42,602 bases of DNA from the NCBI GenBank assembly GCA_045837725.1, contig JBEWZL010000184.1:496001-538602 (forward strand). The letters run 5' to 3'. The notes under the pieces are model-generated. The model did not search any database, was not told the DNA's origin, and saw only the letters and a program-made list of their open reading frames with translations. This document shows, piece after piece, positions 4,812-36,589 of the stretch. The position numbers and the translations under genes were made by a program. Position 1 is the stretch's first letter. Each line of letters opens with the position of its first letter. This DNA comes from Vermamoeba vermiformis. Taxonomy: Eukaryota.

Positions 4812-6936
4812 ATGGGATTGCGCATCTCTCCGATGTTCGTGTAAGTACTCATGAAATCATCTTATGTATTATTCGCAAATTACTATAATGCAATTCAATG
4901 CGTATGTTGCGTAATTAGCTTCTTTAGTGAAAATTTTTATTTGTGAAATTTCCGAGTCTTACGAATCCGCAGTGGAGACGATAAAGTCGAGGTGGTCGCT
5001 ACAGTAGTTAGAGATATGAAAGTCAAAAAGAAGAAAGAATAAGAAAAAGAAGAAAAAGAACAAGAAAAAGTCCAAATCCAAGTCAAAGCGCTTGGCACGC
5101 AAACACGTCGTTGTGGCTTCAATTGAGGCCCACGAAGTGCTTGCAAATTCTAAAGCTGATATTTCCACCGACGAGACTAAGGCAGCCAAGCAAAAAGTAT
5201 TCGAAGCAACGAAAGCTGCTGGCGTACAGATCAACTTGATTTCGAATCCGGAAGCGATCGAGACGTTGTTGCAAAAAGAAGCCAAGACTACTACCACCGC
5301 TTTCTATCTCGTTAATTTGGGCACAGTCGTGGATAAATATTTCTTATGGATGAAGCACTTACCTCGTGCTGTTCCTCACTACGGTAAGTTCTTTTTGCAA
5401 ACCCGATCGGTCCGGGATGCGGCTAACATTTATTTTTTAGCCGTTAAATCGAACCCCGATATCAACATTGTACGCACATTGGCTCAGTTAGGCTGTGGCT
5501 TCGATTGCGCGAGCAAATCAGAAATTGAAGAAGTTTTGAGTATTGGTGTCAGCCCGGATCGCATCATTTTTGCCAACCCATGCAAGGGTCCAGGTAAGTC
5601 TACTCTACTATACATAATATATAGCCCAGGACTAATATGAATAAATATAATAGATCACATTAAGTACGCGAAGGACAATGGTGTGGATATGATGACATTC
5701 GACAACCGCGAAGAGATTGAAAAAATTCATCAATTGTTCCCTAATGCGCGCATGGTGCTGCGTATTTTGACCGATGACAGCCACTCGTCGTCACCACTTG
5801 GCACTAAGTTCGGTGCTCCTCCTGATGACTGTCCCAAGTTGATGGCTTTGTGCAAAGAAAAAGGCATTAACCTCGTTGGTATTAGGTTAGTCGTAAACAC
5901 GCCATCACGCACCCAATACTAACATTAGTATAGTTTCCACGTGGGTAGTGGCTGTTACTCCACTGCTGCCTACCAGGACGCGTTGAAACTCGCTCGCAAG
6001 ATGTTTGATTTGGCCGGCGATTACGGCTACAAATTGAAGCTTTTAGACATTGGCGGTGTAAGTACCCGTCAATAGCCGTCGCCTCGCAGATTCTTATCGT
6101 GTTGCAGGGCTGGCCTGGTGTTGAGACAGGTCCTGTCAGCTTCGCGGAGATTGCTACGGAGATCAGACCAACCATTGACGAGTTGTTCCCCAAAGAAGTC
6201 GAAGTCATCTCTGAGCCTGGCCGATACTTCTGCACTGCCTCGTACACACTGGCTGTGAACGTTATTGGTCGTCGAGAACGTTACATCAATCCGCACAACA
6301 CGACCACTATGAAAGCTGTTGATCAGGCCTCCGACGAAGACTCGGACTTGGAGTTGGAAAGTTTTGACGACGAGTCTGACTATGACGCTGACGAGAAGTT
6401 AGCGAAGAACGAACAGGCGTTGTCGCTGGAAAACATTGAGAAGAAGTTGCGAGCCAAGAAAGAGAAGAAATACAACCAAGCTATGAGCCCTAAAATCAGC
6501 GTTGAAAAAGTCGATAAGAAACCTGAACCCGAGGTCCAAGAAAAGCCACAAAAGGAAATCCTGTATTATTTATCCGATGGTATCTACGGCAGTTTCAACA
6601 ATATCGTAAGTGTCACATTGAAAATTTGGACTTTGACACGTGTCACTAACATCGCGTCATTAGATCTTCGACCACGCAGTGCCTCAGCCCCTCAAATTAG
6701 CCACCACTGACATTGAGAACGGTCAAATCGACGAGTCCAAGACGACAAACAAGAGCAGATTGTTCGGCCCTACTTGCGACAGTATTGACGTCATTTGCAA
6801 AGACATTGAGTTGCCTGATCTGCACGTGGGAGATTGGCTCTATTTCATGAACATGGGTGCCTACACCGTGGCTTCGTCGACCAAGTTCAACGGCTTTACT
6901 CCGCCCAACGCGAGATACATCATGACCCTTGAATAA
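4812..6936 (+). CDS. ODC1: Ornithine decarboxylase (fold-type III PLP enzyme); 5' end unresolved, see finding
   Basis: [16 protein letters not shown] (PLP Lys), [61 protein letters not shown] (catalytic Cys), NMGAYT. The main frame is open from 5020 but has no AUG before the conserved core. Confidence 0.93.
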
Positions 6937-7608: not shown

Positions 7609-10377
7609 ATGCTGACTAGACGCCTGATTGGCTTGTGGAGCAAATCTGCAACAAGTAGGCGGCAGACAAGCAATGTTATTGTCAGCAGATCTCTGTTACA
7701 AAGGTCAACTGCAAAAACAAGCTATTTAATACGAAAATATAGTAAAAAAATTGAAGAGGCTCCTAAGCAAGCGATATCACGAATTGAAGAGTTGCGATCT
7801 AATTTAAAAAAGTAAGAATAATTTTTAAAAATCAACAACTGACAGAATATTAAAACAAACTTATTATTTAACATTCAATAGATATTCTCAAGCATATTAT
7901 AATGAATCAAAATCTCTCGTCACGGATCAAGAGTATGACGCGTTGTTCAAAGAGTTACAACAATTAGAAGCTCAGTACCCTGTCTTAAAAACCAAAAATA
8001 CGCCAACTGAATCAGTGGGAGCAAAAGTAATAATATTAACCACTTATTTAGCGTAAAATCTTCTTTGCACTCACGATGAACTCATTCGGATCTGTTGATC
8101 AGGTTAAAGACGGCGTTGTTCATCGACGTCCAATGTTATCATTAAGCAACACATATAATGAAGAAGAAGTCATTAAATTCGACCAACGAATAGCAAAATT
8201 ATTAGAAGGCGAGGTAAGAATTTTGATTGAAAATACCACATCCGAAAATTAATTCTCTGTAGAAATACGAATATACGCTAGAAATGAAATATGATGGTGT
8301 AGCATTGAGCCTTATATACAACAAAGGAAAATTAGTACGAGCATTGACCCGTGGCGACGGAATTAAAGGCGAAGATGTGACCGAAAATGTTAAGCAGTTT
8401 GTCGATCTGCCCAAATCTTTGCAGACAGACCTCGCAAACATCGATATTGATAAGAAAATATTTGCAAAGCAACTTTTAGAGTCAGATTTTGAAATACGAG
8501 GAGAGGTCGTTTTGTCTAAAGAAGTTTTCAAGCGGATCAACGAAGAAGCGGAAAAACTAGGCCGAAGTCAGTTATTTGCAAACCCGCGGAATTTAGCGTC
8601 CGGAATAATTAACAGAAAATCGAGTAACGGCGCTGCAGAATCGAAAACATTGAAATACTATGAACATCACAAACTAAATTTTCACGCCTATTCGTTGCTT
8701 AGCGACGTTAAAGACCGAAGTAAGCTAATTTTATCAATTTTATTATAATACTAACTATATTTTATAGATCAAACTCAATCTGGAAATTTAAAGTTATTAA
8801 AATCGTTCGGATTTAATACGGACGAAAAATCAATGACGACAAATTCCATTGACAAAGTGATTGAATATACACAGCAATTAGAATCACAACGCGCATCATT
8901 GCCATATGAAATCGATGGTGTAGTCGTCAAAGTGAATAGTATCGAACAACAGGAATTCATCGGATCCACTTCGTCAGTACCGAGGTGGGCTATTGCGTAC
9001 AAATTTGACGCGATGAAAGCTGTCACTACTGTCCAAGACATTCAACTGCAAGTAAGTCACCATTACACCAAAATCACTTCGCTTAGTTTCGACATCAATA
9101 TTTTATTTTTATTCGAAATTAAGTATTTTGATTATTTGGAGATATTTCAGTGTATTTATATTAACCTTTGAAATAGGTAGGCAGAACTGGCAAAGTGACG
9201 CCGGTTGCAATTGTAGATCCGGTGCTTTTGTCCGGCATTTCAATCACAAGAGCTACATTGCATAACAGGCAATACATTGAAGAAAAAAACATTCGAATAG
9301 GATCGCAAGTGATTATAGAACGGTCAGCGGATGTTATTCCGAAGATTGTTGGTCGTGCCAGTGACGAAATTTCACCCCATGAAAGTAGGTACTTTGACGT
9401 CCGTTGACAGCATTACTAAATTAGGCATAGGCTCGAGTTTGCCGATAGATTGGCACACTTGCCCTTGTGAATTGAAGCAACCATTGGAAGAACGTGCTGG
9501 TTACGTGGATGTTTTTTGCACGTCGCCGCAATGTCCCGAACAACTCATGAACAGAATTCATTATTTTGCGGGCAAGAACGCGTTGAAAATTGACGGACTG
9601 GGCAAGAAGATTGTGCAACAACTCATCGACTGGAATTATGTGCAGTCTATTCCCGATATTTTTTCATTGCATCAATACCGTGAAGAAATGATTTCGCAGC
9701 CTGGTTGGGGTGAAAAAAGCGTCGATAATTTGCTACAAAATATCGAAAAAGTACCTAAAATGTTATTTTTGCTTTCAAGTCATTCTAACGAAATTTCGCA
9801 GGCGAAGCAAGAAGCTGATTGGCCGTCAATTATTACCGGATTAGGATTGCCGCATGTTGGCTACGAAGCAGCAAAGGCTCTTGCCGCGAAATTTCCCAAC
9901 GCTGAAGCACTGAAACAAGCAACAGCTGAGGAGATCATGGAGATTCAACGATTTGGACCGAACAACGCGCCGGCTATTGAGAATGCGCTAAAATCATCGC
10001 GCGTCGTTGAATTGATTGATAAATTAGCTGCAATTGGATTGGATGGCAAGACCAACAAACCAAATGACAATCAAAACAGTCAAAGTAGCGCGTTGAATTC
10101 TTCGAGTGCAGCTGTCACGAGTGAATGGCACGGCAAAAATTGGGTGTTTTCAGGCGCACTCGACACAATGTCACGTTCAGACGCAGGAAAAAAAGTCGAA
10201 AAGTATCTTGGAGGCACCGTCAAAACTACAGTGAGCAAAGGCTCAGTTCTCGTGACTGGTGCTAAAGCCGCTGAAGGTTCCACGTCAAAAGCTAAAAAAG
10301 CCCTTGAAATCGGAGCTACGGTGTTGAACGAGACTGAATTCTTGGAACTGTTGCGCAAATACGGCGCCGATTTATAA
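7609..10377 (+). CDS. ligA: NAD+-dependent DNA ligase (LigA family) with predicted organellar presequence, about 7 introns
   Basis: Domain Ia YYNESKSLVTDQEYD, HRRPMLSLSN, motif I EMKYDG, TRGDG..GEDVTEN, EIRGEV, FANPRN, YEIDGVVVKV, PRWAIAYKF, VGRTGKVTPVA, RATLHN, DVIPKI, Cys4 Zn finger, HhH (IDGLGKK, GLPHVG) and C-terminal BRCT (VFSGALDTMSR). Confidence 0.96.
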
Positions 10378-15157: not shown

Positions 15158-15361
15158 TTTATATACAGTTGTGGTATCTATGTTACAAATAATTGAAGGA
15201 ATAAGCTTGCCTTCCTTTCCCGCACAAACGGAGCGATCACGTGGATCTTCCTAAAAAGGCAAGTCATGCAACCACGCGCCTCGAAAACTACGCGGGTTAA
15301 AATACGACTTTCCGCTGCTCCTTATTGTTCTATTTATTTCTACTTATCATACACATTACAT

Positions 15362-15853
15362 ATGTTTTTATTAAAGTCCACGCAAAAGGTTGTCTCTCGT
15401 TTGGGTTCAACAGCCTCGAAGACATCCACAGCAACCCTATTCAGATCTTATCATGAACGCGTGATTGATCATTACAATAACCCCAGAAATGTTGGAACAT
15501 TGCCCAAAGACGATCCTAAAGTTGGCACGGGACTTGTTGGCGCCCCTGCTTGCGGAGATGTGATGAGACTTCAAATCCGCGTTAATGACAAAGGCATCGT
15601 TGAAGAAGCCAAATTCAAGACCTATGGATGCGGCTCTGCTATTGCCTCGAGCTCTCTGGCTTCAGAGTGGATTAAGGGCAAGCATGTCGACGAAGCAGTC
15701 CAGATCAAGAACACCGAGATTGCGAAGCATTTGTCTTTGCCTCCCGTGAAGCTGCATTGCTCTATGTTGGCTGAAGATGCTATTCGTGCAGCTATTGCTG
15801 ATTGGCAAAAGAAGCAACAGGTAGATGCCAAGCAAGCTGAACAGCAACAATAA
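15362..15853 (+). CDS. ISCU: Mitochondrial Fe-S cluster scaffold IscU/Isu1 (intronless)
   Basis: Presequence followed by YHERVIDHYNNPRNVG, GAPACGDVM, FKTYGCGSAIASSS, LPPVKLHCSMLAEDAI. The true start is probably ATG 15362. Confidence 0.97.
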   Translation: MFLLKSTQKVVSRLGSTASKTSTATLFRSYHERVIDHYNNPRNVGTLPKDDPKVGTGLVGAPACGDVMRLQIRVNDKGIVEEAKFKTYGCGSAIASSSLASEWIKGKHVDEAVQIKNTEIAKHLSLPPVKLHCSMLAEDAIRAAIADWQKKQQVDAKQAEQQQ

Positions 15854-26208: not shown

Positions 26209-28714
26209 ATGGCTAAAAGGTTGTATATATTGCTAGCCGTCGCTTTAGTGTTGACTATCGGTGCGTACTGTCCAGAACTAATTTAAAAAATTGTTTCCAG
26301 ATCTAGTAATTTCGGTGTAATAATTGAAATATTATTTTCTAGGACGAGCGCAGCTATCTAAGACCTACACTAATTGCAAAATTATGTCGGACACGATGCC
26401 GTATTATTTTCACTGGACAATTACGGATACGTACATTGAGGTCGCAGTTCAAGCTCCTGCCAATCGTGGATGGATTGGCCTGGGCTTTCCTAAAGTAGGA
26501 ACGACGCAGAATTTCATGATCAGCGACGGCCTTGGTACAGATGCGGTGATCGGGTACCTTCAAGAGGACGATCCCAATTGCCCGCAAGGCTGCATTCGCG
26601 ATTATTGGTAAGAATGTCATTTAATCGGTATTTAATTATTGTATAAGTGGCCCCGATATTTATTCGAGCGCAATTCTTAAAAAATGGGATGCGCGACATG
26701 GATGCTCCCAAACGAAATTACCGTCCACTTTACCTGTTTTATAGCATTCAATAATTTACTTTAATTCTTAGGATCACTGTTCGTTCAAATCCGCCTCGCG
26801 ATTCTATCCAAAATGTAGAGTTTGTTGCCGCATCTCGCGACGCTTCTTCGGGTTTGGTCACTCTCGAATGGAGACGTCTTTTGACCACGAATGATACCAC
26901 TACAGACAGGGTACGTAATAATTGGATTTTTTTCGCAATTGGGAAAATCTCCGCTGCGGCGGTAAACGTACCAATTTTTAATGATTACCTTCGACAGATT
27001 ATTGATCCCACCGTCGAACGAAACGTCAATTTCGCATTTAATAGCGATGCCGATGCAGTAGCAAATAATGGTACTATTCTTAGGTACCACGGATCTAACA
27101 GAAGAGGTCTGTAATTTTTAAAAATGGGATAATTGAGTTTATAATTATAATGTTCTAATAATAGGCACTCTAACCATGAAACTTTCGGATCCGTGTAAGT
27201 AATCGAGGGATTACCCATGAATTCTTGTATTTTTACTAAACACTTTCTAAATTTAGCAACTTGTTCCACAACCCCTGTCATGCAGAATGCAGGCTCATTC
27301 ACGAACCCCGACCAAACTTACTATGCTGAATGGATGATTCAGAACGATGAAATTTCTGTCACCTTCAGAGGCAAAACACGCACCGGTAAGATCTGCCACC
27401 GATTCATACCTTTTGAATATGATTTAACGCTCGATACTAGGATGGGTTGGCTTTGCATTTGACGCTGACGGTTTGATGCCCGATCACGACAGCTACGTCG
27501 GCTGGGTCGACGGCAGTGGTACCGCGACTTTGACCGATCGTCACACCTCGGTGCGTGCTCAGCCCTTGACCGACGTCGAGTCTGGCGGCTCAAACGACAT
27601 TTTGTCGTTCAATGGCTCAGTCGTTACGATTGACGGCGCTGAGTGGCTCGAGTTTACGTTCAATCGCAAGCTCAATACAGGCGATCAGTACGACGTCGTC
27701 GTGGAGCCGGGCAAGCCTGGGCACCTGTTGTGGGCTATTGGTCCTGACAACGGCGTTGATTACGCTGCCGCCACTTTCCAATACGTACGTAGAAGACAGT
27801 CATAAACTCCTATTCTTACCTCTTCAATTGCAGCACAAAGCCAAGGGCAGCTACTCAGTCGATTTCTTCGGTGGTTCCGCAAATGCGAACACCAACACGA
27901 TCGATTTGCGACGCGTGCACGGCATGCTGATGATTACGGCGTGGTGCGCGTTGTTGTTCACTGGCTCGTTCTTCTCGCGCTACCTCAAAGTGCTCACGAC
28001 AGCTTGGTTCAAAATTCATGTGGCACTTCAAACTGTTGGTGTTGCAACGGTATTGACGGCATTTATTATCATCTTTGTGGCACGCGGTGGATTCACGTTG
28101 GGCGCGCATCAAGTGATCGGAATTATCATCTTTGGCTTGACTATGGCACAGCCGTTCATCGGTCTGATTGCCGACAGACTGTTCGATCCTAACCGCAGTA
28201 AGGTCCCGGCTCAAGATCAAGTAAGTCGTGCACGTTGAATAACAACTTGCTGATTCTATGGTGTTAGGTCCACTGGTGGGTTGGTCGTTTCTTGCTTTTA
28301 CTCGCGATTGTCAATATCTTCTTGGGCATTGATCGCCTGTTCCTCCAATCTACCGGTGCATACACATCGTACGGTCTATTCGCTGGCTGGACTGCACTTA
28401 CCTTCGCGATCTTGATCGCCAATGAAGTTCGCATCGGTGGTGCTGAAGAGAAGGACGTCATCAACCTTAACGGTGGTAGCGGTGGTAATGCTCAGCTCAT
28501 TAGTAAGTAATTTACACTACATGTTATTCAAGTGCACCAATTAATATCGGATTCAGACACAGATGAGAATAAGAAGAAAAAGAAAAATGCCCGTAGTTCC
28601 TTTATCGCTTGGATCATTCTTCAAGTATCGATTTTAGTTGCACTCTTGGTCATTGTTGGTATCAGCAATACTGACGGGACTAACGGATTTGTTACGTCTT
28701 CGGCTTCCCGTTAA
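26209..28714 (+). CDS. Two DOMON domains + cytochrome b561 (CYBDOM / ferric-chelate reductase-like)
   Basis: Signal peptide; GWIGLGF..M..DAVIG; GWVGFAL..MPDHDSYVGWV..FNRKLNTGD; b561 His ligands VHGMLM, WFKIHV, AHQVIG, VHWWVGR. Confidence 0.9.
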
Positions 28715-28831
28715 ATTTCATTTCAATCTTTGTAAAAAAACTAAATTTCTATCAACGTCACTATCAATTTACTAGCCACGACTTGTTTTGCGAGATTAAT
28801 TGGCTTGGTGGTGTAGCTACACGAAGTGCAT

Positions 28832-31800
28832 TTATTGCGCGTCTTGCGAGTGCAATATACTGTGAAAGTTTTGACAGATCGAGTGGAAAGTGAATGCAAT
28901 GTACCGATCCAAATCTTCCAGGAAATCGTCCAAGAAGTACGATACAATGGCTGATTCACTGAACAGTTTGTGCAGCTGTGATTTGATAATGACGTACGTG
29001 ATGCCGTCCCACAGCTCATCCGCACCACTGTTAAGCTGTTAGCAAGGTCGCTAGAGGTATAGAACTAATCTTACATAATCTTGCTCTGCGTGCTGTGAAT
29101 CAACTTTGAGGTCTCGAGCAGCACGGTGAACTTGCCGAACGGTGAAATCTCTGCTTGAATGTCTTGCAGCTTTTCGATTGGTGCACTCCACTTTTCGTTA
29201 AATTCGAGTTGCTGTGTGCGTGAAGAGTTAGTTCGGTCTCGCTGTCTTTAATTTCGCTTTAGGTACCTTGGGTAAGGGCCAGTCTGCGTTGTTTTCAATG
29301 TCTCTGTACAGTTCTTCGTCTTCGGCAAAAAACTACTGATACGTTAGTACTCGCGTGAATAGTACTCCTGTCTTGTTTACCTTTTCATAGAACATCGGAT
29401 AAACCACCTGATAGATTGGCGGGAAGATTTTCTCAAATAAATATTTTACAATAGTTAATTTGACTTCGTACGGCAACATTAATTGCCCTGGCGTGTAGCT
29501 CTCTGTATCAACGGGTCAGTTCTTATTCGAATATGGAAGTCACAGTTACATACGCAATATCTGCAGCACGAAGTATTTGATGCTCGCCACGGACTCGTCA
29601 AAGCTCTCTTCGGCCGAGTTTTTGAACTTGCTGTTGAACCACTCGCCAAAGGCTTCAATTTTATCGTCGTACGACCTGACCGAACATTAGTCGTCGTAAT
29701 ACTAGGCAACACCGGGGACTACTTACTTCAGATCGTTCTTCAGTGCCGCGTGACTGTCCACCAACAATCCGCTGTCCAGCTTGTTCGCCACCAGTTGGTT
29801 CGCGTTCTTGTCCGCGACACTTCCGAGAAGTGCTTGAAGCTCACTTTCGCGCTTTGGTTTGATTTTGTTTGCAATCCACTTGACCTGCGAGTTGCACGCG
29901 GGACAGTTGCTGCCCGTGATATAATCGCATGTGCGGCACAAGTGATCACATCTACACGAGTGTCAGTGCTGGTAACTACAACTTGCAATGATGCGTACCT
30001 TTCAATTTTTCTTTCACAAACAAAGCACAGTGATCGCGATCCAAGCCGTGCTTCTAGCTTCAAGCGTTCTTTGAGCGAAGAGAGTGACTTCTCGATTGCC
30101 ACCGCTTGATCTAATGATCGTAAAGTTAGCGAAATGAATGATCTTGGCGTTTGCTGTGACTTACCAAAACACTCTTTGCGCAGTTTGGTCACGTGTTCTA
30201 TAATCTCTTCGCGCATCCAAATGTAATTGCACAACTTGTCGTGACTGATCTTGAGGTCTAAATGATCTACTTGCGATATTGATTCGATTTCGAGTAGCTT
30301 CAGTTGTAGACGATCAGTGATGTAGGTCACTTTAGAGGGCGTTAAAAGGGCGGCAGAATGATCGGAAGTGAGAGCGAGACTTACCGAGATTCGGCCAATT
30401 ACCGAGCCAATCGCGCATGTACGACTTGAACTCTTTGCTCTCCGTGTTTTTCAGCTGCTCAACGACCCAGTCTAGCACTGCACGCTGAGTTTCTACGACA
30501 ATTATTGTTAGCAATAGACTCGAGTATTTTAACGCTACTTACCCTTAGCAGTTTGCGGCACGTTGAACTGCGAGACAATGTGCCAAATTCCTCCCGCCAC
30601 TCCGAGCACGGCAAACAACGCCACACCGCTCGTGAGAATGGTGGTGGTGATCAGACCCGCTGTGTACTGTGTTAGCAAAGCTCTCGTGTCAACAAAGTAA
30701 ATCTCGTACCTAAAAACACGCCACCCAGCGCAGCACTTCCCGCCAAGCTCGCAATGCCCATGCCGAGTGGCACGGCGGTCTTGACTTGCAGCGAGAGACT
30801 GGTCATGTCTTTTTCGAGATTGACGAACAACTCTGCTGCAGTCGGACTCCAGATCTGACGTGCGAACTCTGATTGCAACCTGTGCGAGAGTCAATATGAC
30901 ATTAAAGTATAATAGGAGTACGTACTCGGCGAGTTCTTTTTCAATCTTCGACGCCTCGTTCCACAGCCAGTGCGCGAACTTCAATTTCTTTTTGCGCACA
31001 AAGTCGAACAGCTGCTTCGATGACTCGCGTTCAAAGATGCGGAACAACAGCCGTTTGATTTCGTTCTCGTACGGCGTGAAATCTCTGCCCAGTACGCCTG
31101 CACATTAAACATTAGAAAACGGATTGTAGAAAGTTAATGAACGTACTTTGTTTGATGACTTTCTTCACGGTGTCGAGACTGAAAGATTTCTTTTGTTGCG
31201 GCGAGAACTTTGTGTTGAGTGTGGACAGTTGGTCGAAGCCGCCTGGCGCTGCAAAACTGGCTGAAAATTGCTCGATGTACGCGATGAATTGCTTTTCGAA
31301 TTTGAGCTCCAAATTCTATTCGTCCAAGCATTATTAGTACTAAGATTAATATATTAAAATTGTATTCGTACTTGTAATTTCGCGGCAGCAGCTCTTTGTA
31401 ATCGATGAATGTCGTTCGTTAGTTTCTTGGCGTGTTCTAAAAATAGCTTGGACGACGACGCGTGTGCTGCGTGAGTGGTGTCTTTTTTCAACGAAGACTT
31501 CAAGTGCATTGAAATCACCGAGGAAATGAACAAGTGTTGCGTCTTGATCAGCTCGAAAAATGAGTTCATGAACAGCGACAATTGGCCATAGACTTGGTGA
31601 CGCAATTTTGTGCCCAGGATCTGGCATTAATCATTAGTATCAAAAGCGCTAATAATAATAGCATTACCTTTTTAAAGTTCTCAAATGGCTCGTAGTTTTG
31701 TCGCTCTTTTCTAGCCTTGAGAACGCGACCGAGATTTAATTCGCAAATTATTGGTTCTTTTAATACGTCTTCGAATGCATCCTATTATAAAAATAATTAA

Positions 31801-33137
31801 TATACTGATCAATAATGTAATCAATTAATTTAGCTACCTTCAAGCGCCCTTTTGTTTTTTCAATTTCCACGCGATTGTCTTCAAATCCCTCTCGCAAGTT
31901 CAACACGAATACGACGTCGCTGCCGCAGACGATTTGATTTTTCAACATTAACACGTCTTCGTCCCATTTTTTCATCAATGTTTGAGGACCGAAGACGTAG
32001 AGAATCAACGCTGAACTTTGAACTGAGCCACGCGCACTAATGTTCAAAAATCTATTCTCTTTCGTGCCGGGACTGCATATTTATTGGTTAACAAAATTAA
32101 TTTTGCGATATTATTATGTTGCTTACCAATCAATTAACGCAATGCCTGAATGCTCGATCCCGAACAAAGGACGGCGTAATCGGACTTCGCGAATAAGAGG
32201 CACCTGTTTCGTATTAATAAATGTTGAAGCTATATCTAATTATAATATTACCTCGCGTATTCGCGGTGGTGAGTCAATAATCAACGGCAGTGTCTCGCGC
32301 AATTTGTCTTCGCGGATCCAAGGATTATTTACGAGCTCTGACAACGCTGTTTTGCGAGGCTCGTCATTGACTTCGAACGCGTCTAAATAACGGCAATTAA
32401 TTTTATTATCGAGCAGTATTTGGGGTAACTTACCGAATATCGACTGGATGTCGTCGGGAGTCTGCACGTCGTTCTCAAACAACACAAATCCCGCGCGATT
32501 GGTGTCCAAGTGCCCTGAATGCACGATGCAGGGACAGGTGGTGGTTGGATTGTACGCTGAAGGGAAAGGAAATGAACTTTCGTCGTCGTGTTCGTTCACC
32601 AAGCAATTGCCCAACGTGCTTTTGCCGGCCTTAGTCTCGCCGTACAATGAGATGAATAATATTGAATTTTTGACTTCGGCGAGTTGTTGGCGACAGTTAT
32701 TGACGATGCTTGCGAAAGGAGAGGTCGGATTTGAATTTAACAACGATTTTTCGATTTTACCAATTTCTTCTTGTTCCATAAATGTCTGATATATGCGAAT
32801 TAATATCGAAAGATTATTTGGAATCAGAATTACCTTTAAAACGGCTTGATAATCGTCATTTTCAAATAAAGAAATAAATCGCTCTTTTAACGCAAAAATA
32901 GTCCTTAAATCATCTTCTAAAATATTACTAATAATATGGTTAATATATAATTTATGATAAAGAATTATTTGAAATTATTTCAGTGGAAAATTCGATCTAA
33001 TGAATGAATTACTTTGTATTGCGGACACCACCGGGCTGCTCTGCTACGTTATTATTATTATCTGCCTTCAGCCAATCTTGCAGTAACTCGGCGTGGCTGC
33101 TTTGGCTCGAGCTGAGCGATCCTGAATCCCGCTCCAT
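28832..33137 (-). CDS. Dynamin-like GTPase + hydrophobic hairpin + C3HC4 RING + VPS9 domain protein (many exons)
   Basis: G1 LYGETKAGKST, switch I FPSAYNPTT, G3 IALIDCPG (spliced); Gly/Ala hydrophobic stretch at 30.6-30.8 kb; CFVC-x6-CDHLCRTC-x7-CPAC; SPFGKFTVLLETSKLI..GADELWDGITYVIIKS. Confidence 0.75.
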
Positions 33138-33276
33138 CCGTTCAATTTCAAATATCACAAAATACAAGGACCGTTATGTTATTTTGTTTTCATCGACGCT
33201 CGTGTTGTGTCTATAACGGGTTTTGAATTGAATGTCTGAAAAAAAAATGTAATCTTTCAGTCCTGAGAGCAGTGCA

Positions 33277-34850
33277 GGGAGGCGATTAACTTCTACGGGT
33301 TCGGTCAAAAAGGCGACCAAAAATTTCAAACCTACAACTTGTCGGGTTGTAGGTCTTTAAATGTCGGCTTTTTTTTAGTCGCCTTTTGTAGGTTTGAAAC
33401 TGGGAGGTAGAATGATGTCATCGGGAGAGTATATAAAAGGGTATTCGTTATATACAGCACTACGTGGAGTTCATTTCTTCGCGGATTTAAATCCGCCAAA
33501 AAAAGAGCGAATCTATGTGCCATGCTCCTACAATCTGTTCAAAGGCAATTATTTTATTGATCGTTCATCAAAAATTATTTCATTAATGGGAAGGCTGCTT
33601 TTGAAGTTGCTGTGATATAGATCCAGTTTGAAGCACCGTACACCAGCTTCGGGAACTTACTTAGCTGTAAAATTGCCTCAAATTGTGCACAGAAAATTTA
33701 TACAGCAGTTATTACATTAATATATCGTTTTTCTTTTGTTTGCACACAATATTGCGTTGTCTTTATCATCGTCATGACGCTCTTGCTTTTTCTTTGACAC
33801 GAGCAGCTTATAACGCTGCTTTTAATTATCAAAAGGGCATATTTTGTCTCTTAAATTCGTATTAGTTATGACACATTGTCACAATTGGGGCTGACTCGAT
33901 GTTTGAACGGATCCAGCGAAGTTAAACGCGCTCTTGCCATTACACTCGTGTAAATGAAATTCCACTCGTTAGACTGGCAGCTCTATTGCTTATAATTAGT
34001 AAAAAATTCTCTATAGGGAAATTTAAGTAAAAGAGGCTCACCGGTCTCGCCAATCTTGGATGTGGTTCGCAATCGAGATCCCACTTCCGTTCGCTCTGCA
34101 CCGCATCGATTTCCGCTAAACAGCTTCAATATTAAAGTTTTAATGAGTTTCATGAATTTCCTCGGATATAACTGTATTGATCATTGCTGAAAGTAAGGTA
34201 TAATGAAAAGTAAATTTCTTTCAGCAGAGATCGGCGAAGATGACCGGCCTTTTCCGTGTAGTAGCGCCTTTTGCAGCTAAAATGGTTTTTTAAATCGATT
34301 AAATTTTGTGTGCACTAGAATTCGCCTGAGAAAAGAGCTTAAGAGTACATTAGATCAAAAGAGAGAGTGGATCGTTAGATCGAAGCGCGTTTGTAGCTAA
34401 AATGGGTTTAAAGTAATTTATAATATTACAAAATATAAACTATCAATAAATATAATGCTTTAAATACCTTTCTTGGGAAATAAGCTAAGATCAGGCAGCG
34501 AATCTTGCATTTAAATTAGTTTACCCTTACCGGGGCATACTTCAAGCCTGCTGCAAGTATAATTAATACAATAAAATATAGTGGCACACGTTACGAACAG
34601 TATAGAAAAATCCTCGTTGATCAGACGGCATCGGCAATTTATTCCCAGGAACGCTGCTTAATCATGCAAGTGAATACTTTACTTCATCAGGTACGTGTTA
34701 AACAGGTGCATATTAAGAATTGGAATGTCGCCCAAGGTCGGTTTTTTGGAAGGTAGGCTCGGGGTGTTTTTGCCCGACAACCCGAAGAGTTGTAGGTCTG
34801 AAATTTTTGGTCGCCTTTTTGACCGAACCCGTAGAAGTCAATCGCCTCCC
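33277..34850. mobile_element. Non-autonomous DNA transposon, ~74-bp TIRs, 8-bp TSD
   Basis: TIRs 33277-33350 and 34777-34850 (GGGAGGCGATTRACTTCTACGGGTTCGGTCAAAAAGGCGACC..., 4 mismatches by eye). GCAGTGCA is duplicated at 33269-33276 and 34851-34858. No intact transposase ORF. Confidence 0.93.
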
Positions 34851-35078: not shown

Positions 35079-36589
35079 ATGGTACGTTCCCGAATTATAA
35101 ATCATTAATTTTAATTAACCGATAAATGGCCATTTGGTGTCTTTCCTTGGTAGAATAACCGTAAAACAAATTTGAATGCACGAAAAATATTAAGATTTAA
35201 ATAATGGAGGCTTAAACGCCGCTAAATTAATTTAAACTTTTTAAATCTGTTTTTCAATTAGCGGACACGAACTTAATTTCTAATATTTAGGCCAATCAAA
35301 TCGTGCAATTCATCGGATTATTCCTTCTAATAGCATTGGCTCAATCCTCAATTATAATCTACGGCGGTATCGCCGGCGATTCTTCGCTTCCCACTGCATG
35401 GAAGAACGGCGCTATTCTCAACAAGACTTTAAATGCGCTTCGCCCGGGAGACGAGTTTATTATTCCTGCTGGTAACAAATTCTACTTGGTCGGCGGAATT
35501 ATCGTGAAGGACATTTCGGATGTGGTCCTGCACTTCGACGGCTCCCTCATCTTCACCGACAATACAGACACGTGGCCCACGACTGCTACAGGTCAAGTGC
35601 TCGAGTGCTTATATTTTGAGAACATAAACAACGTCACCTTCACGTCGAGCAGCGTGGGATTGATTGACGGACAAGGCGAGGCCTGGTGGGGACTCCTGGG
35701 CTACGTGGAGTACTTGGAGAACAGACCGCGCTTGCTGAACATCGGTGGCTCGCGCAATCTTTTGCTCGAGAACTTGCTCTTCAAGAACTCGCCGTACTGG
35801 ACTGTTTGGATCCACGAGGTCGATGGTCTCGAAATCCGCAACTGCGAGATCTCTGCTCGTCGCAACAACTACGACGGTCATGACTGGTACAACTTGAGGT
35901 AAGATCGTGTTGTTGTCCACCGAGAATAGTTGAGCTAATTACTCGCCAGCGCATTTAACACCGATGGCTTCGATGTGACCGGCAAGAACGTTTGGATTCA
36001 CGACTGCACTATTTGGAACCAAGACGATTGCATTGCAGTTAAAGACGGCTCCGAGAACATGCTGTTTGAGCGCATTCACGCGAGTGGCCTCGGTCTCGTG
36101 ATTGGTTCTATTGGTGACTCCGTTGTGCGCAACATCACCTTCCGTGACTCGTACATGCACAAGACGTACAAGGGAATCTACGCCAAGTTCCGTGGCTCAG
36201 GCCTCATTCAAGACGTGACCTGGGAGAACGTGGTCATGTTCGAGCCTGAACAGTGGCCCATTTGGATTGGCCCTGCTCAACAAGCGGACAGCATCAACAT
36301 TTGCAAGGCTGATCCGTGCAGTCTGTGCTGGCCTGACATTCCATTTGCTCAGTGCAACATGCCCAATGATGCCAAATACATCAACATTACTTTGCGCAAC
36401 ATCACCGTGATCAATCCTTCAAGTGCTGGAGTTATTCTTGGCAGCGAGACTAATCCCATGCAGAATGTTACATTTGATGGAGTTGTAATGCAAAATGCTC
36501 CTGATAATTATTTTGTATGCAAAAATGTTGCCAATGGCATTGCTACTGGTGGCACTACTCCTGTTCCTAGTTGTTTCAAAAAGCAATAA
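35079..36589 (+). CDS. Secreted GH28 polygalacturonase-like glycosidase
   Basis: ATG-only first coding exon (donor GTACGT 35082, acceptor 35290); signal peptide; IDGQGEAWW, RPRLL, NSPYW, FNTDGFD, NQDDCIAVK, GLVIGSIG, NITF. Confidence 0.9.

Follow-up and report, generated by a model that had tools for sequence, protein, structure and literature searches.

As a rule, Rab activation and dynamin-type membrane remodelling are the tasks of different proteins, each recruited only transiently. Among the remodellers, BDLP, the bacterial dynamin-like protein of Nostoc punctiforme (2j68, 2j69, 2w6d), and further bacterial dynamin-like proteins (DLPs) such as IniA, SynDLP and Campylobacter DLP1/2 share an order of GTPase domain, helical middle, membrane-binding element and return helices, while the mitofusins and Fzo1 (5go4, 5goe, 6jfk, 9kfe) are membrane-anchored, fusion-type proteins with two hydrophobic helices set between helical regions. 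Among the activators, Rabex-5, Vps9p and Arabidopsis VPS9a (1txu, 2ot3, 4n3z, 2efc) carry a tandem of a helical bundle and a VPS9 domain, and the known VPS9 proteins are soluble and recruited via ubiquitin, Rabaptin, lipids or Ras. Here we describe a gene of the amoebozoan Vermamoeba vermiformis that almost certainly combines a GTPase domain, a membrane hairpin, a zinc module and a VPS9 domain in one chain. It occupies 28832..33137 on the minus strand of a 42,602-nucleotide stretch (positions 496,001 to 538,602 of contig JBEWZL010000184.1, assembly GCA_045837725.1), the whole of which we call the window and to whose numbering all positions below refer.

Set beside these systems, the encoded protein is a new combination of known modules and is uncharacterised. 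BDLP shares its order of parts and is the best match for its N-terminal two thirds; in contrast to BDLP, it is encoded by a eukaryotic, intron-rich gene, has a 50-residue hairpin where BDLP has a short paddle, and extends for about 300 additional C-terminal residues bearing the zinc module and a VPS9 guanine nucleotide exchange factor (GEF) domain. With the mitofusins it has in common the membrane-anchored, fusion-type layout, but its sequence likeness to them is much weaker than to BDLP, and mitofusins have neither a GEF nor a zinc module. Its C-terminal end reproduces the tandem of the Rabex-5 group with the equivalents of the catalytic Asp and Tyr in place, but the VPS9 domain is here built into a transmembrane dynamin-like protein, and the equivalent of Pro317 is replaced. 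The original prediction, made by reading the window, had called this architecture unfamiliar. In keeping with that, our searches of full-text literature turned up no paper on a dynamin-VPS9 fusion, although Table S1 of a survey of Vps9 proteins (PMC6032885) may already list a family member without comment. That survey sampled amoebozoan transcriptomes including Mayorella and notes that in single taxa a Vps9 protein carries a ‘P-loop NTPase’ as an additional domain (Table S1), the term dynamin being absent from its available text; the accessible part of a survey of new dynamin-related proteins (PMC10280142) makes no mention of VPS9.

Gene structure and evidence for a single chain

The locus is a single nuclear gene of an amoebozoan that is expressed, is spliced and codes for 1085 residues, single-message expression having been shown in close relatives. 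The order of its parts is a disordered N-terminus, a bacterial-DLP/mitofusin-type GTPase, a helical stalk, a two-helix hydrophobic hairpin, return helices, a compact eight-ligand zinc module, a linker, and a Rabex-5-like helical bundle followed by the VPS9 domain. The coding span runs from the ATG at 33137-33135 to the TAA at 28834-28832 and comprises 1085 codons plus the stop in 21 exons. Its 20 GT-AG introns lie, from donor to acceptor on the minus strand, at 33012-32928, 32833-32786, 32433-32383, 32251-32204 and 32126-32073 (introns 1-5); 31837-31782, 31667-31621, 31371-31316, 31146-31098 and 30925-30880 (6-10); 30709-30660, 30542-30493, 30384-30330, 30164-30111 and 29998-29952 (11-15); and 29726-29676, 29553-29503, 29380-29333, 29266-29212 and 29074-29028 (16-20). 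The first is 85 nt long and the remaining 19 are 46-56 nt; their donors resemble GTAAGT/GTACGT and their branch sites CTAAC, and they end in AG; the acceptor of intron 1 at 32928 was set by comparison with the relative P0001. The window as a whole is eukaryotic nuclear DNA, with a GC content of ~0.34-0.52.

Within the unspliced span the longest minus-strand open reading frame (ORF) has 244 codons, and a search with this frame recovered P0001, a relative of 1086 aa with precomputed Pfam matches to both Dynamin_N and VPS9. The 90% cluster of P0001 contains, along with fragments, four full-length and uninterrupted ORFs of 1086 aa on environmental contigs of 3396, 5201, 3412 and 3369 nt. Because the 4306-nt genomic span cannot be read through, we infer that these four derive from spliced RNA. 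The spliced window model is collinear with P0001, being identical in 1017 of 1087 alignment columns (93.6%) with no gap at any exon junction, and the start codon and first residues are the same in both. Contigs from a run that we guess to be RNA (X5), whose organism label differs from that of the window, contain 13 joints inside the gene. Ten of these coincide exactly with introns 3, 4, 5, 6, 11, 12, 16, 17, 18 and 19 and show CT..AC ends on the plus strand, equivalent to GT..AG on the minus; one, 31095>31145, equals intron 9 in length but is shifted by 2 bases; and two, 30341>30415 and 30471>30548, involve replaced letters and have no clean fit to the gene model. None of the listed runs carrying matching DNA is recorded as RNA.

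At the genomic level, a metagenome contig of 9690 nt (L001) holds an orthologue in which 20 of the 21 exons (2-21) match end to end at 59-100% identity, and the same exon order is seen in two independent genomic contigs, L001 and L002; no synteny was found between the flanks of L001 and the window. The chance that two adjacent genes or an assembly chimera have been taken for one is negligible: no support for such an artefact was found, only intron 1 having needed correction, and against it stand the four independent uninterrupted ORFs, the exon order common to L001 and L002, and Rhizamoeba saxonica, whose Trinity transcripts show this architecture too. With the transcript-like ORFs and the spliced joints of X5, the single minus-strand exon chain in one frame that the original prediction had proposed is borne out.

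Comparison of the window with L001 gives, for the whole gene, a pN (nonsynonymous differences per site) of 0.078 and a pS (synonymous differences per site) of 0.72, the synonymous sites being near saturation. By part, pN is 0.072 in the GTPase, 0.096 in the stalk, 0.029 in the hairpin, 0.034 in the post-hairpin helices, 0.062 in the zinc module, 0.107 in the helical bundle and 0.043 in the VPS9 domain, and pN/pS is ~0.1 or lower in all domains except the linker, the sole relaxed part (pN 0.187). Every domain is under strong purifying selection, and only the linker is relaxed.

The GTPase, the membrane hairpin and the VPS9 tandem

The protein starts with an N-terminal extension (residues 1-110; 32675..33137, containing introns 1 and 2), of which residues 1-41 are predicted to be disordered, with an AlphaFold2 predicted local distance difference test score (pLDDT) below 50, and are followed by helices. 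The full-length model has a mean pLDDT of 74.6 and a predicted template modelling (TM) score of 0.59, most of the GTPase and stalk scoring 80-94. The dynamin-type GTPase domain (residues 111-340; 31776..32674) is delineated by its Pfam and BDLP matches, its motifs and Foldseek. Its G1 motif GETKAGKST (residues 122-130; 32641-32615), the G2 threonines in PTTTCP (32548-32531) and the intron-split G3 motif DCPGT (residues 259-263; 32131-32063) are intact in the window and align with the motifs of BDLP, G1 being retained in 5/5 and G3 in 7/8 of the family sequences that cover the respective sites. The G4 motif for guanine recognition has the form [NT]KxD or NxxD, with an Asp. In the window it reads NLRE (residues 318-321; 31900-31889) inside the string VLNLRE that the original prediction had flagged as degenerate, where the aligned BDLP motif is NAWD. 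All eight family sequences covering this site keep the Asn, and the position of the Asp is occupied by D in three, by E in three and by P or S in two, the window having Glu; the description of this motif as degenerate is correct.

The Pfam Dynamin_N model, with a cutoff of 27 bits, scores 31.0 bits on P0001 and 20 bits on a single window exon taken alone; on distant relatives it reaches 40-49 bits in several cases (45.9-48.7 in P0012, P0015 and P0073). A family profile built from 11 aligned members and compared by HMMER with solved structures matched BDLP with E 6.2e-14 over ~400 residues, and MFN2 (5e-6), MFN1 (2e-5) and Fzo1 (2e-3) only around the P-loop. Foldseek searches with the full-length model gave a concordant picture. 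BDLP (2j69/2j68) was matched over its whole chain (E 3.2e-12, target TM 0.54-0.55, 777-803 columns), followed by IniA, SynDLP and the Campylobacter DLP pair, by Mfn1, Mfn2 and Fzo1 (target TM 0.43-0.58; Mfn1 itself 0.44-0.58) and by fission dynamins, with Mx among the weaker matches (4whj, E 3.3e-7, target TM 0.29). The NCBIfam bacterial dynamin model scored 14-22 bits against a cutoff of 1600 bits, NCBIfam matches being at the P-loop level only, and the feature neighbours in ESM Atlas were bacterial dynamin-like clusters at 0.83-0.84, which we take only as a lead. Thus, both sequence and modelled fold support the placement of the GTPase and stalk in the BDLP/mitofusin, or fusion-type, branch of dynamins, with BDLP closest on either measure.

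The helical middle or stalk (residues 341-605; 30783..31775) aligns to the BDLP trunk and is modelled by AlphaFold2 as long helices at 369-421, 431-482, 525-583 and 586-607, with pLDDT mostly 70-94. It leads into a Gly/Ala-rich hydrophobic hairpin (residues 609-658; 30574..30773), the only part of the entire protein in which the Kyte-Doolittle mean over 19-residue windows exceeds 1.4 (windows starting at 609-643; maximum 2.04). Its 50 residues would accommodate two membrane helices; it is 98% identical in L001, and AlphaFold2 gives it a pLDDT below 50. Its position corresponds to that of the lipid-binding paddle of BDLP and the transmembrane helices of mitofusins (PMC2862293). As an anchor, it would place all soluble domains on one side, the cytosolic one, of the membrane. 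The post-hairpin region (residues 662-784; 30037..30564), by position the equivalent of the GTPase effector domain (GED) or the second heptad repeat (HR2), is modelled as helices over 668-783 and is 94% identical in L001; across the family, L738 is invariant and C739 nearly so (P0001 numbering). The helical stalk and Gly/Ala membrane hairpin foreseen from the letters of the window are therefore recovered, by modelling and hydropathy respectively.

The C-terminal tandem comprises a helical bundle (residues 869-985; 29182..29737), identified by alignment to Rabex-5 and by Foldseek, and a VPS9 domain (residues 986-1085; 28835..29181), identified by Pfam, with the motif GADELWD (residues 1022-1028; 29026-29006) and the conserved VPS9 Tyr (28903-28901). 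With Pfam VPS9, for which the cutoff is likewise 27 bits, P0001 reaches 46.5 bits and the window's last exon on its own 28.5 bits, and 9/11 aligned family members are matched at E<=5; both Dynamin_N and VPS9 are consequently above their cutoffs on P0001. Positions 740-949 of the family profile align to the Rabex-5 chain at 25-245 (1txu, 2ot3, 4n3z; ~210 positions, E ~1e-9), and Arabidopsis VPS9a is matched with E 8e-9. A C-terminal AlphaFold2 model, built on P0005, a natural fragment corresponding to residues 462-1086 of P0001, shows the tandem at a pLDDT of ~90 or higher. In Foldseek this model matches Rabex-5 bound to Rab21 (2ot3_A) with E 2.1e-5 and a target TM of 0.67 over 234 of 253 residues, and AtVPS9a bound to Ara7 with a target TM of 0.62-0.67. 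In the HMMER alignment, the equivalent of Rabex-5 D313, the Asp of the GAD motif, is kept in 10/10 family sequences and that of Y354 in 9/10. Substitutions of these residues in Rabex-5 lower kcat/KM 28- and 17-fold, respectively, and 117-fold jointly (PMC3563681). The VPS9-like end with a GAD motif, as it had been described, accordingly withstands both kinds of comparison, which support a genuine VPS9 catalytic tandem.

The zinc module and the distribution of the family

Between the post-hairpin helices and the linker lies the zinc module (residues 788-816; 29894..30027, split by the intron at 29998-29952), with the spacing C-x2-C-x6-C-x-H-x-C-x2-C-x7-C-P-x-C. Its ligands in the window are C788, C791, C798, H800, C802, C805, C813 and C816, in C3HC4 order. 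No other element of the family is as well conserved: all 11 aligned sequences (19-31% identity) share seven Cys and one Pro, 9/11 have the His, and most members have a hydrophobic residue after the first pair of Cys. The pattern C-x2-C-x6-C-x3-C-x2-C-x(5-20)-C-x2-C occurs in 24 of 73 collected proteins, which is every family member that spans the region, and all 24 have the His-x1-Cys step and a first loop of six residues. In P0014 and P0018 an Arg replaces the module His and a His appears inside the last Cys pair (C-P-H-C), as in no other member; this relocation may reflect a swap of ligands, in which ligand pairs three and four would share one zinc site, and, the two proteins being close relatives, it counts as one event.

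A very short-looped C3HC4 RING with ubiquitin-ligase function had been proposed for this region. The canonical RING spacing has a first loop of 9-39 residues and a His-x(2-3)-Cys step; the module, with 6 and 1, is shorter in both. A profile of the module alone, searched against the PDB, matches the RINGs of XIAP (E 0.0048-0.007) and cIAP2 (E 0.0073) with the eight ligands in register, including CGHL and CPxC; the alignment requires deletions of 5 residues in loop 1 and of 2 residues between the His and the next Cys. TRIM34 (0.0055) and BARD1 (0.02) are also matched, TRIM34, BARD1, TRIM32, AMFR and CGRRF1 together spanning 0.0055-0.09. Archaeal Spt4/RpoE'' zinc ribbons, however, equal these scores on the second half of the module (E 0.002-0.009), and one C2H2 protein is matched at 0.0034. 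None of the Pfam RING models matches P0001 at E<=1. The IAP-type model zf-C3HC4_3 matches 2/11 members without significance (best E 0.46; 0.26 the best elsewhere), and the double zinc ribbon DZR matches 3/11 (best E 0.036). Both AlphaFold2 models give the module a pLDDT of 45-64, Foldseek searches with them returned no RING, and an ESM Atlas search with residues 660-880 returned no usable match. Hence, the C3HC4 ligand order and the two short loops of the proposed element stand, while its identity as a RING, and with it the ubiquitin ligase, is not established: we describe it as a RING-like, possibly RING-derived, compact zinc module.

Two other assignments were considered and set aside. Zn2Cys6 binuclear clusters have the pattern C-x2-C-x6-C-x(5-12)-C-x2-C-x(6-8)-C; the middle spacing of the module is 3 residues, Zn_clus is not among the seven families listed for P0001 at E<=5, and the eighth invariant ligand, in C-P-x-C, is foreign to that fold. 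The Zn-fingernail of VARP was given no more weight than that of a lead, the likeness of CxHLCxxC to CHPLCxCxxC being loose and the Pro absent; it is reported as holozoan-specific (PMC7539009).

An HMMER search with P0001 against 1.84 billion representative sequences found 46 proteins at E<=0.001, 25 at <=1e-10 and 10 at <=1e-30. Both Dynamin_N and VPS9 are detected in P0012, P0013, P0014, P0015 and P0020 (5/16 scanned; 20-30% identity), the Dynamin_N score of P0014 being slightly below the cutoff at 26.1 bits, and likewise in P0069 and P0073, the VPS9 score of the latter being below the cutoff at 22.6 bits. Three further proteins, P0022, P0047 and P0071, combine Dynamin_N with the zinc motif and have no Pfam VPS9 match at E<=0.01. 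Source names were available for only some of the 20 clusters looked up, from EukProt transcript records and one record from a metagenome-assembled genome (MAG); no member was seen among named proteins. The named sources are Rhizamoeba saxonica and Echinamoeba exundans (Tubulinea), fragments from Amoeba proteus and Stygamoeba regulata, and a 1228-aa record with taxid 242541, Mayorella sp. (Discosea). As far as these named records go, then, the family is confined to Amoebozoa, and its relatives and the style of its introns point to an amoebozoan for the window gene as well. In a quick maximum-likelihood tree the family splits deeply in two, and branches measure 1-3 changes per site.

The cluster of P0034 and P0071 (the latter 1120 aa) bears the NCBI label ‘MAG: hypothetical protein, partial [archaeon]’. 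P0071 groups with the Mayorella-labelled sequence in the tree; the labelled record may stem from eukaryotic DNA binned by mistake, or else be of greater interest.

Searches for homologues by shared words brought in nothing beyond DLPs of bacterial appearance and exon pieces from close relatives. No relatives were found in IMG/VR in two scans combining peptide patterns with tblastn, nor in one genome per GTDB species in two scans that used a few degenerate peptide patterns and may miss distant relatives. A viral origin was rejected, since the fold matches in BFVD are giant-virus dynamins of the ordinary kind, 343-713 residues long and lacking VPS9, and the two pattern-based scans of IMG/VR yielded nothing; a prokaryotic origin of the whole architecture was likewise rejected on the outcome of the GTDB-species scans, with the same limit on their sensitivity.

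The gene has a converging neighbour on the plus strand (27428-28678) whose product has a DOMON domain (58.3 bits) and, after it, a hydrophobic part of several helices. A spliced X5 contig of 803 nt confirms two of its introns, 28221-28267 and 28503-28556 (both GT..AG), at a depth far above that of the dynamin-VPS9 gene. Within it, over 27800-28227, reads of the runs X18-X20 are 95-99% identical to the window with fixed differences at 27954, 28001 and 28004, and the species label of these runs probably covers a different strain or species. Elsewhere on the plus strand, 8263-10377 encodes a bacterial-type NAD-dependent DNA ligase (LigA) in a eukaryotic and apparently intron-split context, with Pfam matches to DNA_ligase_aden (114.5 bits) and HHH_2; its best solved relative is 1dgs (E 8e-22), the match reaching the BRCT end. 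Further plus-strand genes, ordinary in kind, encode an ornithine/arginine decarboxylase (5020-6710), an ISCU-type NifU_N scaffold protein (15197-15853; 172 bits) and an enzyme of glycoside hydrolase family 28 (35291-36589). An Rfam scan of the whole window gave no family at the gathering score.

Possible roles at the membrane

We tentatively favour the view, quite possible though short of probable, that the protein is a fusion-type dynamin anchored in a membrane, onto which it also loads Rab5-family GTPases. The hairpin would anchor it in an organelle membrane, and its GTPase heads would pair in a GTP-dependent manner, in trans or in cis, as in mitofusins, atlastins and BDLP, so that membranes would be tethered and deformed; the basis of such G-domain pairing in fusion DLPs is described in PMC8565484 and PMC2862293. 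At the same membrane, the VPS9 tandem would act on a GTPase of the Rab5/21/22 type, replacing its GDP with GTP, and deposit this Rab on the membrane being remodelled. Such loading on its own membrane has an artificial precedent that makes it plausible: once tethered to mitochondria, a VPS9 domain can by itself recruit Rab5A to them (PMC3563681). The zinc module would most likely serve as a shortened, RING-derived protein-interaction or ubiquitin-related element regulating the GTPase and GEF parts. One polypeptide would in this way couple dynamin-type tethering or fusion to a self-made Rab5 identity.

Several observations weigh against this proposal. The Asp of G4 is Glu here and unconserved in the family, for which reason guanine specificity or catalysis may differ. 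The equivalent of Rabex-5 Pro317, which we take to be an important residue, is Asp in the window and Pro in only 3/10 members. The GEF part may be dispensable for some of the family, given that P0022, P0047 and P0071 have no Pfam VPS9 match. As to location, the endosome/phagosome/macropinosome system is the likeliest, being the place of action of VPS9 substrates, but the organelle is a guess, and in our judgement a Gly/Ala-rich hairpin of moderate hydrophobicity suits the mitochondrial outer membrane or the endoplasmic reticulum (ER) as well as the endosome. Finally, raw RNA-seq runs that share the species label of the window (X18-X20), examined over 27800-34200, leave the gene all but uncovered, the few reads being 95-99% alike, a result we count as uninformative.

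The hairpin, Gly/Ala-rich and with a maximum Kyte-Doolittle value of 2.04, also fits an alternative that we consider unlikely, in which the protein is an amoebozoan analogue of mitofusins in the mitochondrial outer membrane, or in another non-endosomal organelle, that fuses or tethers the organelle while its VPS9 domain calls Rab5-type GTPases, for instance in quality control. Mitofusins undergo ubiquitin-linked turnover, and the zinc module would have a comparable role in this scheme. The layout of GTPase, helices, two hydrophobic helices and helices does match the mitofusins as well as BDLP (PMC2862293), Mfn1 reaches a target TM of 0.58, and the Rab5A recruitment by a mitochondria-placed VPS9 domain cited above fits this alternative too. 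Yet the known VPS9 substrates are mainly on endocytic membranes, the best match by both sequence and fold is BDLP and not a mitofusin, and Dictyostelium has a separate Fzo1-like gene (PMC8565484), so that a mitofusin role may already be filled. A comparably small chance attaches to the idea that the GTPase is a regulatory switch or scaffold whose nucleotide-dependent opening or pairing gates the C-terminal GEF, making the protein a membrane-resident, GTP-gated Rab5 GEF. The unconserved base-recognition Asp of G4 would fit a switch, as would the large nucleotide- and lipid-dependent conformational changes of BDLP (PMC2862293); but intact G1-G3 motifs with a full BDLP-like stalk and hairpin, all under strong purifying selection, are more than a simple switch needs.

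Beside a role in phagosome/endosome fusion, the original prediction had raised cell-autonomous defence as a possibility, which would imply a GBP-, IRG- or Mx-like attack on pathogen vacuoles with the RING-like module adding ubiquitin. Many intracellular bacteria and giant viruses live in amoebae, and Mx is among the weaker fold matches (4whj). Against this, the best matches are fusion-type DLPs rather than GBP, IRG or Mx, the protein is permanently membrane-anchored, selection on it is strongly purifying and not diversifying, and the RING function is unproven. Nothing in our analysis speaks for a defence role, and we regard it as very improbable.

Returning to the proposal of an anchored fusion-type dynamin that loads Rab5-family GTPases, its most far-reaching form would rank the family as a third class of membrane-anchored fusion dynamins in eukaryotes, next to atlastin at the ER and mitofusin at mitochondria. 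Derived from a bacterial DLP and resident on amoebal endosomes, phagosomes or macropinosomes, it would tether and fuse these compartments while making their Rab5 domain, with the miniaturised RING-like module as a ubiquitin or partner switch. We think this unlikely to hold in full; if true, it would be a single-polypeptide shortcut of the Rab5-GEF, tether and fusion cascade.

What the architecture itself offers is the welding of Rab activation and dynamin-type remodelling into one transmembrane polypeptide that has been held under purifying selection across deeply diverged amoebae, as represented by Tubulinea and the Discosea-labelled records. Phagotrophic amoebae are hosts to Legionella-like bacteria and giant viruses that manipulate the Rab5 step. 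If the mechanism proposed here is true, the protein would add a candidate fusion dynamin that is neither of the ER nor of mitochondria, together with a very small and strongly conserved zinc module, and the family would constitute a natural experiment on whether an anchored GEF defines the identity of an organelle, as has been shown artificially for Rabex-5 on mitochondria (PMC3563681).

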